Source: Chlamydiota bacterium | Lineage (GTDB): Bacteria > Auribacterota > Tritonobacteria > UBA1439 | Direction: 5' to 3' | NCBI GenBank assembly: GCA_037133055.1 | Contig: JBAXOY010000031.1 | Location: 1-27,655 of the forward strand | Length of the DNA: 27,655 nucleotides | Part shown: in pieces, positions 1 through 6,000 of the stretch | Layout: each line of letters opens with the position of its first letter | How positions within the stretch are numbered: position 1 is the first letter of the stretch | Made by a program: the position numbers

Positions 1-3000
1 CAGTGGTACGCGAGGAACCACACGCTTCCGTGCGTCGTCCCGGCCATGTTCATCGCGGGGGCGATCGCGACGTTCCTGTCGCAGGCCTCCGTCATGAAGC
101 ACCTCGGCCCGCGCTCGAACAAGGCCGTCGCCTACGGCGTCGCCTCCGTTTCGGGCTGTGTCCTCGCGGTCTGCTCGTGCAGCGTTCTTCCGATGTTCGC
201 CGGCATCTACACGATGGGCGCGGGGCTCGGCCCCGCGTGCGCCTTCCTCTACTCGGGCCCGGCGATCAACGTGATGGCGATATTCCTCACGGCGCGCGTG
301 CTGGGCTTCGACATCGGCCTCTGGCGCGCGGTCGGGTCGATCGCCTTCGCCGTCGTCATCGGCCTCCTCATGGCGGGCATATTCCGGAGGGGAGAGACGC
401 GCAGGATGGAGGGGTTCGCCCTCGACGAATCGCCCCCCGCGCGTCCGCTCTGGAAGACATCCCTCTTCTTCCTCTGCCTTGTGCTCTTCCTGGTATTCTC
501 CGACTGGTCCACCCCCGGCAATTTCACCCTCGTCATGAACGACGGCCGTGAGCTGAATGGGAACATGCGGTACGAAACGCGCGACATGGTGAACTTTCAG
601 GTGATCGAAAACGGCGAGGCGGGCGAACAGGTGGAGATCAAGCGGGGGGATATCCGCTCGATCTCTCAGGAGGAGAGTCTCACGGTGAAGATCCACCGCG
701 TCCGCTGGTGCCTTGCGGGCGCGATGGGGCTCGCCGTCGCCGTGATGTGCGCGCTCTGGTTCACGCGCGGGGAGTTCGGCGCGTGGATGTCCCAGACATG
801 GAGCTTCGCCAGGATGATAGTCCCGCTCCTTTTCGGAGGTGTTTTCGTCACGGGCTTTGTCTCCGCGCTCATCCCGGAGAAGGCGGTCGCCAGTCTCGTC
901 GGCGACAACGGGTTTGTATCCAACTTCGTCGCCTCGTTCGTCGGGGCGTGCTGGTATTTCGCGACACTCACGGAGATCCCGATCGTCCAGGCGCTCCAGA
1001 AACTGGGGATGGCGAAGGGGCCCTCGCTGGCCCTCCTTCTCGCGGGGCCGGCGCTCTCCATCCCGAGCATGCTCGTCATACGGAGCATCCTTGGGGTGAA
1101 GAAGACGGCGGTGTTCGTTTTTCTGGTGGTCATGATGTCGACGGTTGTCGGGATGATATTCGGCCGCCTCGGTTGACGCCGAGTCATGGAGGGTAAAAGA
1201 TGAGAGTCAATCGAACGCGTTGCGCCATCGCCGCGGTCGCCGTGTCTGTCCTTGTTTCGTGCGCGTGGGGGGAAGAGCCGGCACACAGGATCCCACGCCT
1301 GGTGGACCTCGGGCGGACGTTCTGCATCCCCTGCAAGAAGATGGCGCCGATCCTCGCCGGGCTCAAAGTGGAGTACGCGGGCCGGCTCGATGTCGAGTTC
1401 ATCGATGTCGGGGATAACCCGGACGCCGCCCGCAACTACGGCATCCGCCTGATCCCGACGCAGGTGTTCATCGACGCCTCGGGCAAGGAGCTCTCCCGGC
1501 ACGAGGGGTTCATGGCGAAGGAGGACATCCTCGCGCAGTGGAAAAAGCTCGGGGTTGAGCTGAAGTGACCACTTCGGGGATGAAGAGATGCTCGAAAGGA
1601 TATTCACCTCTCTGACGCACGCGGTCGGGGGGGCGCCGCCCGTCGCTCTGGCTGCCTCCTTCGCGTGGGGCGTGCTCTCGATTGTGCTCAGCCCCTGCCA
1701 TCTCGCGAGCATTCCGCTCATCGTTGGGTTCATCGACGATCTCGGAAGGATTTCGACGCGCCGGGCGTTTCAGGTCTCCGCCCTTTTCGCGGTGGGGATA
1801 CTGATCACGATAGGGCTCGTGGGGGCGGCCACCGCCGCGGCGGGGCGCATGATGGGCGACCTCGGCCGATGGGGCAACTACCTCGTGGCGGTGATTTTCT
1901 TCGCGGTCGGCCTGCACCTGCTGGGATGTATCCCTGCCCCCTGGACGGCGCCGACCGGGGTTGGTTCGAAGAGGAAGGGGCTCCTCGCCGCCTTCATCCT
2001 CGGCCTTGCCTTCGGGATCGCTTTGGGGCCGTGCACGTTCGCCTACATGGCCCCGATGCTGGGGGTGGCGTTCAGCCTCGCCGCGACGAGGCTCTGGTAC
2101 GGGATCGCGCTGCTCCTCGCCTACGGGGCGGGGCACTGCGCGGTGATCGTGCTCGCCGGGACGTACTCGGAGGCCGTCCAGCGGTACCTCGACTGGAACG
2201 AGCGATCCCGGGGCGCGGTCATTCTCAAGAAGGTCTGCGGGGCGCTTGTCATGCTGGGGGGGGGCTATCTCATCTGGATCGCGCGGTAGCGTGCAGGGGG
2301 GAGGATATGGGAGAGATCTACAAGGTCGAGCCGTCGCCGGAATATCCGCCGGAAGAAGGGTGCTACCTCCGCGGCAACGACTATTCCCCCGTCGCCGTCT
2401 GCGTCATCCTCAACCGCAGGAGGGAGGAGACGCCCCCCGACTATGAAATGCTGGTGCGGACGGCGGTGGAAACGGGGGCGGCGCTGGCGGGGACGCTTCA
2501 GACGGAGAACATCGGCCTCGAGAAGGTCGTCCTCAACATCACGGCGAATCCCAACATCCGCTACCTCGTCCAGCTCGGCCCCGAGTCGCCCGGGCACCTG
2601 ACGGGTGCCGCGGTCGCCGCGCTCGTGAAAAACGGCGTGGACGCTCGGAAAAGGATCATCGGGTCCGAATCGCCCACCCCCTATCTTTTCAACATCCCAA
2701 TGGAGCACATCGAGCGGTTTCGCGAGCAGGTGACGCTCGTGGATTTCCTGAACGAGGGATCCGTGGACCTCGTGCGGGGGGCGGTGCAGGCCTGCTACCA
2801 GGAGGAGCCGACGGAGTTCCGCGGGTACCGCCTCTACGATCCGGGCGCGATCAGGAAGCCCCCGCTCTCCGGGAAGATCACCTGGCGCGTCACGCACCCG
2901 GAAAAGGAGCCGAAGACCGAGGAGGAGCGCGCGCAGCACCAGAAGGGTAAGGCGATGGTCGAGTGGATGAGAAAGAAGATGGAGGAAAAAAAACGGCGCG

Positions 3001-6000
3001 GTAAATGAGGTCGGAAACCGGGAGGGACAGGCGATGAGCGCGTCGGCGAAACAGGCCGCACGGGGGCTTGGTTTTTTCGAGAGGTATCTCACGGTATGGG
3101 TGATCCTGTGCATCGTCGCGGGGATATTCCTGGGACGGATCGCGCCGGGGGTTGCGACGTTCCTGGACGGCCTCGCCATCTACGTGGGCGGCGCGCCGGC
3201 GGTGTCGATACCCATCGCCATCTGCCTCTTCTTCATGATGTACCCGATCATGGTAAAGATCGACTTCGCGGAGGTGATCAGCGCGGGGAAGACGCCGAAG
3301 CCGGTGGCCCTCACGCTGTTCGCGAACTGGGCCATCAAGCCGTTCACCATGTACGCGATCGGGGTCTTTTTCCTGGGCACCCTTTTCATCAGGTTCATCG
3401 GGGTTGACGCGGTGGATTACGTGAAGATGCCGCTCGGCCTCAACCTCGATCTCGGGGCGATGTACGGCGCGGGAAGGGTGGTCATGCACGGCGGGATGAA
3501 AATGCTCGAGGTGCCGCTCTGGCGGAGCTATCTCGCCGGCTGCATCCTCCTCGGCATCGCCCCCTGCACGGCGATGGTGCTTGTCTGGGGCTACCTCGCC
3601 AAGGGGAACGACGGGCACACGCTTGTCATGGTGGCGATCAACTCCCTCTCCATGCTCGTCCTGTACGGCCCCCTCGGGGGTTTCCTCCTCGGCGTCGGGC
3701 GCATCCCGGTCCCGTGGCAGGCGCTCGTCCTCTCGATCGCGATCTACGTGGCGCTCCCGCTCGTAGCCGGCTACTACTCGCGGAAATGGGTAATCCGCGC
3801 GAAGGGGGAGGCATGGTTCAGTGAGAAGTTCCTCCACATCCTCACCCCCATCACCGTCATCGCGCTTCTTCTCACCCTGGTCCTCCTCTTCTCGTTCAAG
3901 GGGGAGATCATCACCTCGAAGCCGCTCACCATCCTCTGGCTCGCCATCCCGCTCTTCCTCCAGACGATGCTGATCTTCTGGATCACCTACGGGCTCGCGA
4001 AGATCCTGAACCTCACCTACGAGGACGCGGCGCCGAGCGCCATGATCGGGGCCTCGAACCATTTCGAGGTCGCCATCGCCACCGCGACGCTCCTCTTCGG
4101 ACTCTCCTCGGGGGCGGCGCTCGCGACGGTGGTTGGGGTCCTCATCGAGGTGCCCACCATGCTATGGCTTGTGTGGATCTGCAAGAAGACGAAGGGGTGG
4201 TTCAGAAAAGAGCGGCGGGCATGAGCGAGTCCGATCTGTTCAACACCCCGGTCCTCCTTTTGCAGGAAAGCCTGTCGGACAGGTCCGTGGCGGGGGCTTC
4301 AGCCCCCCTCACCGGACGAGCGCCATGAAGATCTCGAACAGGATGAGGATGACGATGGAGAGCTCGAGGATCGTGGAGCGTAGGTTGTAGACGCGCATGG
4401 TAAGGGTGTCGGACATCTCGCGGAGCGCCGAGAGTTTCCGGTCCAGTCCACGCTTCCACTCTGCGAGGTAGAGCCTCGCGCCGATCGCCCGGTGCACTCG
4501 CGCCGCGTAGAGGGTGTCGATCGCCTTCAGCGAGTTGTCGATCTGGTCGGTGAGCCAGATGACGTCCGTCATGAGCGTCATCGTGCGCTTCGACAGCCTG
4601 CCCACGCCCGCGCCGCCGAGTATCGGGTCCCGCGCCCCTTCGGCGTACACGTCGCGGGCGAGAGTGTCCAGCTCCCCGTCCAGCCAGCGGTCGTAGTAGC
4701 GCATGTCGAGGAGCTGCGTGTTGGCGAACTCGATGATGTGGATATGGTCCGTATACTCCTCCTTGTCGTAGAGGAACGCGCGGTCCCAGTCCACCACGAG
4801 CACGTCGTCGGGGTAGTAGGAAAAACCGTTCGAAAGGGCGTTCGCCGTCTCCTGGTCGCTCAGGCTGCGCTCCTCGGCCCTGAGGATCATGGCGATCTCT
4901 TTCCCGTGCCTATCGAGGAGCTGCTGGCCCGTGAACGGCTCCTCGATGCCCGTGACATGGAAGACCGCGTAATCCTCCATCAGGTCGCTCTCGATCGGGC
5001 GGTAGAGCGCGGGGGCGACGATCTCCTTTATCTTCCTGAGGTAGTGCGCCGAGAGCGGGAGGAACGGCTCGCCCTCGAACAGCTCCGCGGAGAGCGCGAC
5101 GAGTTCCCCGAAATCGCCGCTAAACGGGAGCTTGAAGCGCAGGCTCACCACGCCGAAATCGAAGACGCGCGCCTGGACAGGGACGGAAACGGTTTTCCCC
5201 TGGAGTCTGACCTTCTCCTCGCCGAGCCTGATGATGAGCGGGAGGCTCTCGAAGCGAAGGTAGTGGCTCTTCGATCGGCGCATCGAGATGACCCCCTCGG
5301 TCTCCTGGCTGCTGAGGAGCTTCTCGAGTGTGTCCACCTTCACCGCGTAGGCGAGCTCATAGCAGTAGAAGAGGTGTATGTTCCCCCTGATCGCGGGACC
5401 GCGGGTCTGTGTATTCATCACTGCGGCATTATACTACATTCCCGGCCGCCCGTGGGCGTCATCAGCCGCCCTCCCGGCGCCTTCGACGATGCTCTCCAGC
5501 GAGGGGAGGGGCAGTGTAACTCCCTCCCATCAAAGAGATTGGAGTAGTAGTAATTATTCTCGATGGGGATATTGTATCCTGTCAGGTCCTGTGCTATATT
5601 TCATGCAGATGAAAATGCCCCCGATGCCGCGCATCGTGAGGTCCCCATCCCTGGCGGCCCTGCTTCTCTTTGGGTGTGTGTGCGCCTCGCTTGCCGCTCC
5701 CCCTGGGACCCCGCTCGCCTTCGAGAGGAATGATTCGATCGAGGTGCTTCGCGCCAAGATCGCGCACAACGGCTGCTCGTTCAAGGTCGGCCACAATTGG
5801 GTGTATGATTTGCCCCCCGAGCATAGGGAAGCGATGCGCGGCCGCCGCGCGTCGTCTTTCGCGACGGCCATTTCCGACGAGATAGGCCCTCTCGAGAAAC
5901 ATCTCTCGAAGGCGCTCCCGGCGGCCTTCGACTGGAGGAACTTCAACGGCCATTTCTACATCGGCCCGGTCCGGAACCAGGGGTCGTGCGGCTCCTGTTA

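Follow-up and report, generated by a model that had tools for sequence, protein, structure and literature searches.

A possible new B12-dependent step in arsenic handling, suggested by an MtrA-like gene in bacterial ars operons

The operon and its probable start on a second contig

The window, i.e. the whole stretch of 27,655 nucleotides that was analysed (contig JBAXOY010000031.1, assembly GCA_037133055.1, from an uncultured anaerobe), opens with five + strand reading frames in a row (1–4224), arsP-trx-ccdA-mtrA-like-acr3, with intergenic gaps of 23, 19, 17 and 25 nt, as described in the initial annotation (17–25 nt). The first, open at its 5' end (1..1176, +), encodes an ArsP_1-family (DUF318) permease (Pfam PF03773, 237.8 bits, cut-off 32.3; 1.9e-70), which scores under the NCBIfam SaoE and SO_0444 cut-offs; its sequence places it in ArsP_1 at family level only, and methylarsenite-specific efflux is putative. 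A thioredoxin-fold protein with a CIPC motif and, judging from the sequence, a hydrophobic, signal-like N-terminus follows (1200..1568, +; Pfam Thioredoxin). It is likely the partner of the CcdA/DsbD_TM membrane thiol-transfer protein encoded next (1588..2289, +; PF02683, 35.3 bits, cut-off 27.1), which has SPCH and GPCT cysteines and no ArsG-named model among its NCBIfam matches. The fourth gene (2307..3008, +) encodes a soluble MtrA-fold protein of 233 aa, P0001, and the final gene of the unit (3034..4224, +) an Acr3 arsenite exporter (TIGR00832, 371.7 bits, cut-off 282.8) with a GIAPCTAM cysteine, while the gene after acr3 (4309–5421) lies on the opposite strand.

That the contig starts within the permease, leaving the promoter and any ArsR unseen, was correctly noted for the window but does not hold for the genome, in which a second contig, C158, carries arsR, an ArsE-type thioredoxin gene and a promoter-like region. 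These two genes most likely start the window operon. The first 28 codons of the window permease form the end of C158, which maps to 2263–2304 of locus L001, and the window start maps to L001 from 2344 onward; from L001 and L106 we infer that the two contigs join, with about 39 nt between them. The ArsR on C158 scores over the ArsR/SmtB cut-off and carries LCVCE, with As(III)-type cysteines. A candidate operator palindrome after the -10 region, read without a chance model, is clear in L001, L004 and L005 (ATAGC-N14-GCTAT in L001 and L005) and partial on C158. Similarly, the locus has no ArsM-like gene, as stated earlier, but the genome does carry arsM, on contig C2. Neither ArsC family was found in this genome, though Acr3 is present. 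The genome has 31 matches to B12-binding domains, and codon 566 of its acsB is an in-frame TAG; CobS, Fhs and stand-alone AcsE were not found in the assembly, which is 92% complete. There is one MtrA copy, and in line with the reported lack of other Mtr subunits, MtrH was not found in the genome and no other Mtr family among the window genes.

A soluble MtrA-type protein with conserved cofactor-site residues

P0001 passes the MtrA profiles PF04208 (137.7 bits, cut-off 25; 4.2e-40 over model positions 1–156 of 173) and NF002126 (177 bits, cut-off 161). Its identity as the methanogen MtrA of MtrA-H was rejected, the TIGR01111 equivalog score being 127.4 bits against a cut-off of 249.15. Its AlphaFold model (mean pLDDT 90.1) superposes on 5laa_A with an rmsd of 1.5 Å (Foldseek E 1.9e-19, TM 0.94 on target), which predicts an MtrA-type Rossmann fold. 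The protein comprises an MtrA core (residues 6–171), a clade-specific insert before a DPGA motif and a charged C-terminal helix (205–232) that occupies the place of the membrane anchor. No membrane helix was found: the highest hydropathy of any 19-residue segment within the C-terminal 70 residues is -0.52, whereas two membrane-type MtrAs reach 2.7–2.8, in agreement with the initial reading of the C-terminus.

At the sequence level, P0001 matches 5LAA with an E-value of 1.3e-34 and with GSEVQGH aligned to GPESPGH, so that the earlier claim of a retained cobalt histidine stands. In 5LAA, His84 is the cobalt ligand and Glu54 hydrogen-bonds the cobalt-ligating histidine (PMC4915002, in excerpt); the aligned equivalents are His97 (codon 2595..2597, +) and Glu67 (codon 2505..2507, +). 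P0001 belongs to a distinct clade of MtrA-domain proteins found in many bacteria, and in 222 clade sequences these residues are conserved at 99% and 98%, respectively. The 5LAA cofactor contacts are matched at Tyr20, Thr66, Glu67, Asn68, Gly70, Val74, Asn77 and His97, and two departures (Lys52 to Gln65 and Ile111 to Thr124) both concern backbone contacts (same excerpt). With its axial pair and most nucleotide-pocket residues kept, P0001 is a putative cobamide protein. Only one of its three cysteines, Cys163, is near-invariant (98%) and the clade's Cys76 is Leu in P0001, hence no As(III) triad is evident. One clade member, P0010, is fused to a 2x[4Fe-4S] ferredoxin, and another (P0015, locus L148) ends in an Fe-S domain also present at the N-terminus of AcsC; fusions of this kind suggest that the cobalt is redox-cycled. 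At 12 of 53 clade loci, flavin or Fe-S redox genes are found nearby.

Recurrence in ars operons and co-occurrence with AcsC

Among the 53 clade loci flanked by 6 kb or more, Acr3, ArsC, ArsM or ArsA was encoded within 5 kb in 35, compared to 1 of 19 in the outgroup of other bacterial genes with an MtrA domain, and the arsenic-linked share reached 43/53 once ArsP, ArsE, DGC, CcdA and ArsF were also counted. Clustering at 80% identity left 22 of 33 clusters arsenic-linked. Both neighbours were same-strand ars-operon genes in 40 of the 79 loci where both could be called, forming 23 different pairs, and the arsenic context spans four supported clades (SH-aLRT 99 for the Terriglobia-labelled, 100 for the Fe-S-fused, 100 for the window's and 97 for a 26-row clade). 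The proposal of a recruited ars-operon gene gained support from these counts, flanking pairs and subclades. Most ArsRs of the clade's ars loci have a CVC motif. ArsC adjoins in 14/53 loci and lies immediately upstream in 9/103. In 17/53 loci Acr3 is present without ArsM, so the MtrA-like protein does not require ArsM as a partner. Because the metagenome loci were taken from the top of a similarity ranking against P0001 (the best 80 of 559), the sample is weighted towards close relatives. When two phyla were sampled evenly, the arsenic-linked share was only 4 of 11 clade loci, or 3 of 9 once the two centre genomes were left out; counted by genome it was 3/8 compared to 1/18 (Fisher p = 0.07).

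The association has exceptions. An ars-type gene is missing from ten of the 53 well-flanked loci; these fall mainly in two subclades, one being the basal pair L149/L171, and no ArsR-type palindrome was recognised upstream of loci of this kind. Six of nine distant homologues were likewise confirmed to have no arsenic neighbours, L006, L007 and L011 being the three that do. Forms fused to DUF4346 or thymidylate synthase are lineages separate from P0001's clade. Because the two subclades mostly lack arsenic neighbours, extending the suggested function to every bacterial 'orphan MtrA' was too broad. The exceptions could also mean that the protein is not arsenic-specific, and instead serves one-carbon or thiol/metal-stress metabolism while often residing in mobile islands of ArsR-family metal(loid) genes. 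The thymidylate-synthase-fused form is the sister clade, some islands bear P1B-ATPase and chromate-transporter genes, and the window permease is resolved at family level only, all of which fit this explanation. Hitch-hiking, however, would hardly produce as many as 23 different neighbour pairs, or such minimal units as acr3-mtrA (L056, L082) and arsR-arsM-acr3-arsC-mtrA (L084, L095), and in the outgroup 1 of 19 loci is arsenic-linked; we consider the explanation unlikely. An arsenic-linked function of the clade protein is probable, the case being guilt by association throughout.

Full-length AcsC, the Wood-Ljungdahl corrinoid protein, was encoded in 21 of 22 clade-carrying genomes (22/23 before removal of one duplicate), G597 being the exception. 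In Chloroflexota, all nine clade carriers had AcsC, against a background of 46/301 and 1 of 17 genomes with an outgroup MtrA; in Desulfobacterota the background is 200/301 and the link is therefore uninformative. In L024 the clade gene is flanked by acsB and acsC, and in L012 it follows CODH. AcsC also occurs in genomes in which the clade copy lacks ars neighbours (G686, G687, G108, G417, G557, G644), and it may be no more than a marker of strict anaerobiosis. ArsM scored over cut-off in 18/23 host genomes (Chloroflexota background 154/301).

No partner methyltransferase emerged to complete a conventional system. A convincing MtrH was found in none of 23 clade-carrying genomes (one 6e-5 match lay on an 837-aa frame), no MtrH-, AcsE- or MtaA-type enzyme in any clade ars operon examined, and no fused methyltransferase in 7 longer matches or in 71 of 150 representatives scanned. 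A system of MT1, corrinoid protein, MT2 and activase was rejected, as substrate and acceptor methyltransferases were absent from the neighbour clusters that recur across 93 loci, except for AcsE/AcsV in the L024 acs operon. One explanation that requires no such partner is protective: arsenicals would react with or drain Co(I)/methyl-cobamide and the metal sites of Wood-Ljungdahl enzymes, and an ArsR-induced cobamide store, chaperone or decoy would keep these enzymes working with no arsenic turnover. The tracking of AcsC, the position in the L024 acs operon and a genome in which CobS was not found despite 31 matches to B12-binding domains agree with this. The Fe-S fusions, however, suggest cobalt redox cycling, no cobalamin riboswitch was found at 14 ars-poor or ars-less loci or on the C158 promoter contig, and conservation of >95% extends to many surface residues of the clade beyond the cofactor pocket, which makes a purely protective role quite unlikely.

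Proposed function and relation to known systems

The MtrA-like gene in ars operons points to an undescribed B12-dependent arsenic-handling step. The best reading is an ArsR-controlled cobamide methyl carrier that would link methylarsenicals with the Wood-Ljungdahl methyl pool, with a lean towards demethylation. P0001 would bind salvaged cobamide base-off/His-on, with Fe-S or flavin partners bringing its cobalt to the Co(I) state, and would alternate between Co(I) and CH3-Co(III) as a free methyl carrier. A methylarsenical would give its methyl to Co(I), an AcsE- or MetH-type domain would move it to the folate/acetyl-CoA-synthase pool, Acr3 would expel the demethylated As(III), and ArsP would export arsenicals still methylated. 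Without activation, the nucleophilic transfer of an As(III)-bound methyl to Co(I) is chemically unfavourable, which counts against demethylation. The whole explanation, a dedicated cobamide-methyl-carrying accessory of ArsR-controlled ars operons in AcsC-bearing anaerobes, is tentative and falls somewhat short of an even chance. Methyl carriage in either direction is possible at a similar level, demethylation specifically is doubtful, and an O2-independent methylarsenic demethylase module, an anoxic counterpart of ArsI feeding the Wood-Ljungdahl pathway, is equally doubtful.

A third alternative is an HgcA-like stand-alone methylase, in which SAM methylates Co(I) directly and the methyl passes to As, Sb or another thiophilic metal(loid), apart from the Wood-Ljungdahl pool. 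It needs no extra methyltransferase, HgcAB uses SAM and a 2x[4Fe-4S] partner (PMC11588087, in excerpt) as the P0010 fusion recalls, and hgcAB is ArsR-linked in one sulfate reducer (bioRxiv 2022.10.17.512643, in excerpt). It is nonetheless very unlikely, since ArsM is already present in most host genomes, trivalent methylarsenicals are more toxic under anoxia (excerpt of bioRxiv 2026.08.27.747368), the HgcA ligand is Cys and the AcsC link is left unexplained. Reduction of As(V) species by cob(I)amide before Acr3 (or formation of volatile arsines), replacing or assisting ArsC, would suit a genome with Acr3 and neither ArsC family, loci following pst/phoU/arsC clusters (L007, L062), a title cited in PMC13262295 (in excerpt) that names hydride generation by cob(I)alamin, and the greater As(V) sensitivity of an hgcAB knockout (bioRxiv 2022.10.17.512643, in excerpt), but ArsC beside the clade gene in 14/53 loci shows that it is not replaced, its absence here may be an assembly gap, and the idea has little probability.

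Returning to the methyl-carrier reading, anoxic methylarsenical demethylation is described as unresolved in the excerpts consulted and matters for the forms that arsenic takes in sediments and rice paddies. If true, P0001 would be the second C1-pathway corrinoid protein, after HgcA, recruited to a toxic element, and one clade of non-methanogen MtrA homologues would gain its first function. The question can be tested directly, since the protein is small and soluble, the structure of a relative has been solved, and a route to reconstitution is published (PMC4915002, in excerpt). No published description of an MtrA-like protein in ars operons was found, and no cobamide protein among the known ars genes in ars reviews and gene listings. 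Databases label non-methanogen MtrA homologues as a methanogenesis subunit.

P0001 shares its fold, His/Glu axial pair and nucleotide-pocket residues with the cytoplasmic MtrA homologue of Methanothermus fervidus (5LAA) and the MtrA of MtrA-H (5L8X, 8Q3V; PF04208), at approximately 36% identity, and differs in its separate clade, insert and charged C-terminal helix. It is soluble like the cytoplasmic homologues (PMC4915002, in excerpt), where bacterial homologues at about 40% identity are mentioned without a stated function; unlike the MtrA of MtrA-H, it has no membrane anchor, no convincing MtrH in the 23 host genomes and an ars-operon context. In MtrAH pairs and fusions, non-methanogenic archaea and bacteria likewise have the MtrA domain outside methanogenesis, with a proposed methyl exchange with the Wood-Ljungdahl pathway (PMC9635834 and PMC11291895, in excerpt), but these systems include MtrH; the word arsenic is absent from the main text of both papers.

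The HgcAB mercury methylase resembles the clade in combining a corrinoid protein with a ferredoxin against a toxic element (PMC11588087, in excerpt), and is ArsR-linked and arsenic-responsive in Pseudodesulfovibrio mercurii ND132 (bioRxiv 2022.10.17.512643, in excerpt). HgcA, however, has a CFeSP-derived fold and is membrane-bound and Cys-ligated, whereas P0001 is soluble with His/Glu, and P0001 was rejected as an HgcA for its solubility and want of an HgcA or CdhD model match. Operon C of ND132 (arsR5-arsP-arsE-DGC), reported as arsenic-induced (same excerpt, with 0 occurrences of MtrA), shares the arsR-arsP-arsE core, to which the present operon adds trx, ccdA, the mtrA-like gene and acr3. 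Regarding demethylation, ArsI requires O2 (excerpt of bioRxiv 2026.08.27.747368), and methanogens demethylate DMA(III) by a mechanism given as unclear (PMC10579292, in excerpt). Finally, MtaA/methylcobalamin methylates arsenic in methanogens (PMC6205960 and PMC13262295, in excerpt), a cobamide methyl chemistry on arsenic akin to that proposed for P0001; according to these excerpts it is a side reaction outside arsenite control, whereas the P0001 gene sits in an ArsR-led operon.

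The ars operon and its MtrA-domain protein

The co-directional run of five genes described in the initial annotation was recovered at window 1-4224, with all genes on the + strand and intergenic gaps of 23, 19, 17 and 25 nt. An ArsP_1 permease gene, open at the contig start, is followed by genes for a thioredoxin, a CcdA/DsbD_TM protein, the MtrA-domain protein P0001 (233 aa, 2307-3008) and Acr3, which scores above the TIGR00832 cut-off. The operon start probably lies on C158, another contig of the same genome, judging from the sequence at its end, which holds arsR (LCVCE motif), a thioredoxin gene of the MTH895/ArsE type and the opening 28 codons of arsP, approximately 39 nt from window base 1 when measured against the homologous locus L001. 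At L106, from the same genus, the whole run lies on a single contig, and there arsM separates the MtrA-like gene from acr3. L001, L004 and L005 have a palindrome after the -10 region, of which C158 retains a part; upstream of loci that lack ars genes, hand-made patterns, which carry no chance model, picked out no ArsR-type palindrome. Promoter and terminator scans of the window gave results at chance level, and Rfam detected no cobalamin riboswitch at 15 loci. A 370-aa ORF (window 4309-5421, - strand) with no Pfam or NCBIfam match is convergent with acr3, and window 5378-12453 holds a tandem of three papain-family (C1) peptidase genes and one thermolysin-family (M4) peptidase gene.

P0001 passes PF04208 and NF002126 and falls below the methanogen equivalog TIGR01111. 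It matches 5LAA, the structure of the cytoplasmic MtrA homologue of Methanothermus fervidus, at 1.3e-34, and its predicted model (pLDDT 90.1) overlays on that structure at 1.5 A. In 5LAA, His84 is described as the cobalt ligand and Glu54 as its partner, with contacts from Tyr18, Thr53, Asn55, Gly57, Val61 and Asn64 (PMC4915002). The equivalents in P0001 are His97, Glu67, Tyr20, Thr66, Asn68, Gly70, Val74 and Asn77, and the His and Glu are conserved in 99% and 98%, respectively, of 222 clade sequences. Retention of the cobalt-ligating His, as claimed earlier, was thereby confirmed, and the claimed absence of a membrane helix also held, none being found. The same 222-sequence alignment revealed no As(III) cysteine triad in P0001. 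A place in a methanogen-type Mtr complex was rejected, as the protein scores below TIGR01111 and lacks an anchor, and no MtrH was found in its genome, which is 92% complete. P0001 is an MtrA-domain protein, but neither a methanogen Mtr subunit nor HgcA.

Distribution and arsenic context of the clade

At least 3873 proteins, other MtrA types included, matched at E 1e-20 among 4964 candidates. P0001 was placed in a 112-row clade (SH-aLRT 98) of a 145-row tree, with thymidylate-synthase fusions as the nearest relatives (SH-aLRT 99) and methanogen MtrA and MtrA-DUF4346 apart; one short row was omitted from this tree, long-branch warnings apply to its outgroups, and both it and the subclade tree are quick searches supported by SH-aLRT only. 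Source labels within the clade include Planctomycetota, Verrucomicrobiota, Chloroflexota, Desulfobacterales and Terriglobia. The titles of the closest named loci give Auribacterota or Planctomycetota, or leave them unclassified. The gene occurs in 7 of 79 genomes of the host's phylum, all 7 within the host's family. A plasmid search returned four distant matches, three of them named DUF4346.

Genes were called with our own script, neighbours were clustered, and cluster representatives were named by NCBIfam and Pfam. After exclusion of loci with no called MtrA gene (L067, L160-L162, L166, L176), of L108, whose protein is the same as that of L004, and of short loci (L096-L102, and all of L109-L144 but L141), 104 clade loci including the window were available, 53 of them with at least 6 kb of flank. 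Acr3, ArsC, ArsM or ArsA was encoded within 5 kb at 35 of these 53 loci compared to 1 of 19 outgroup loci (other bacterial MtrA-domain genes), where sensitivity may be lower since the scoring profiles were built from neighbour clusters of clade loci. Among 70 selected genes, about 25 of them outgroup, Pfam identified no Acr3, ArsP or ArsC in outgroup loci. The clade count rose to 43 of 53 once ArsP, ArsE, DGC, CcdA and ArsF were also counted, and 22 of 33 clusters were arsenic-positive at 80% identity. Acr3 was the commonest neighbour (30 of 53 loci). Where both neighbours were called, 40 of 79 loci had same-strand ars-operon genes on both sides, in 23 different pairs, and the arsenic context was spread over four separately supported subclades and single rows of the subclade tree.

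The 80 metagenome loci were the closest of 559, a sample weighted to the kin of P0001. Even draws of 301 genomes each, centred on the genomes of loci L007 and L009, contained the MtrA domain in 21 and 13 genomes, respectively; of the 11 clade loci in them no more than 4 had an arsenic link, or 3 of 9 once the centre genomes were removed. Ten well-flanked loci lacked ars genes, most of them confined to two subclades. The arsenic context is recurrent, but given the even draws and these two mostly ars-free subclades, the gene counts as a genuine, mobile ars gene across much of the clade and not throughout it; the earlier claim of an ars gene therefore stands for that part and does not extend to the whole. 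An apparent ArsC-MtrA fusion, P0037, was set aside, as its middle part looks like a wrong reading frame.

A 54-70 aa protein recurs in L078:5197-5367 and 12 other ars loci, directly upstream of the MtrA-like gene in 7; it had no Pfam or NCBIfam match, and its atlas clusters are unnamed. A search for longer fusions among 8000 scored candidates, itself weak evidence, brought up nothing beyond long forms of the TusA type and fusions to thymidylate synthase. In P0038, P0039, P0044, P0113, L159:4566-7450 and L164:6128-8135, MtrA is fused to a thymidylate-synthase domain, in some cases with DUF4346, and the long forms at L159 and L164 adjoin dCTP deaminase, with thymidine kinase also at L159; these fusions possibly serve cobamide-linked thymidylate synthesis. 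Proteins combining MtrA with the pterin-binding DUF4346 (L145-L157, L167-L169, L174, L175, L014) have varied contexts; several carry a Cys-rich N-terminal extension, three lie near an ArsR-family gene, and at L175 an ArsM/AhpD-selenoprotein-like gene, below cut-off, lies upstream. Long forms of 410-526 aa whose C-terminal extension contains Cys (L170:4146-5375, L171:5954-7186, P0004, P0005, P0008), some with an N-terminal TusA domain, had no ars neighbours where context was visible.

Host genome and the Wood-Ljungdahl link

The own genome encodes AcsB/C/D/V, CODH, a MetH-type protein and MetF; at its 92% completeness, neither ArsC family was matched, nor were Fhs and CobS. The acsB gene (L105:1007-3196, contig C29) has a single in-frame TAG at codon 566, reflecting a pseudogene or an assembly error. 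The genome's arsM sits within a second ArsR-led unit (L104:5303-10217, contig C2), composed of arsR, genes for a 181-aa Cys-tailed protein, CcdA, a 65-aa protein and a P1B-ATPase, and arsM. There are also 31 B12-binding domain matches, most of which form clusters and lie in frames 460-770 aa long (e.g. on contigs C9 and C12), yet CobS was not found.

Full-length AcsC was present in 22 of 23 clade-carrying genomes (21 of 22 after removing one duplicate), the match in G597 being partial and C-terminal only. The Chloroflexota background was 46 of 301 genomes, a hand count of matches below 1e-70 in which three genomes enter the denominator only. Within that draw, AcsC was found in 4 of 4 clade genomes (hypergeometric p 5e-4, or 3e-3 with the centre genome removed, for kin that are not independent) versus 1 of 17 with outgroup MtrA, while the Desulfobacterota background of 200 of 301 makes the comparison uninformative there. 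ArsM was less telling, at 18 of 23 clade genomes against 154 of 301, two of which enter the denominator only; with Acr3 lacking ArsM in 17 of 53 loci, an obligate ArsM partnership was rejected. MtrH gave a single weak match in the 23 clade genomes. At L024:4814-13869 a full acs operon, which also has acsV, acsD and acsE, carries a clade member between its acsB and acsC genes; in the tree this member groups within ars-linked relatives. At L012 the MtrA-like gene is placed after CODH, and the C-terminal end of L148-type members is the Fe-S domain of AcsC. AcsC was also present alongside clade copies without ars neighbours, and it may be a marker of strict anaerobes and no more.

Proposed role and alternatives

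Since the His/Glu pair is kept and Fe-S fusions occur, the cobalt would cycle through Co(I) and CH3-Co(III), and the AcsC link suggests the folate/ACS pool as methyl partner. That P0001-type proteins are methyl carriers, in either direction, is a plausible if tentative reading. Demethylation is the favoured direction because Acr3 is the commonest neighbour and ArsM already supplies methylation, because trivalent methylarsenicals are described as highly toxic under anoxia and ArsI as O2-dependent (bioRxiv 2026.08.27.747368), and because corrinoid-based DMA(III) demethylation has been proposed for methanogens (PMC10579292). The methyl group would be removed from methylarsenicals, and As(III) would then leave through Acr3. 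This specific activity is rather doubtful, its weak points being the missing activating methyltransferase, the absent As(III) cysteine triad and the broken acsB of this genome.

That the protein is instead a passenger unrelated to arsenic is unlikely. Protection of cobamide enzymes is slightly less probable still. A Co(I) reductant and a SAM-fed methylase resembling HgcA (PMC11588087) are both quite improbable.

Bacterial MtrA homologues are mentioned with no function in the consulted part of PMC4915002, and a role in supplying the Wood-Ljungdahl pathway has been hypothesised for MtrAH pairs (PMC9635834, PMC11291895). Our literature search, which covered main texts outside subscription journals, yielded no paper placing MtrA in ars operons, and 'mtr' is absent from the accessible text of a 2026 preprint on anoxic demethylation. 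Judging from motif and layout, the ArsR-led operon would tie expression to arsenic; in P. mercurii, an arsR-arsP-arsE core, the same as that found here, is reported to be arsenic-induced (bioRxiv 2022.10.17.512643).
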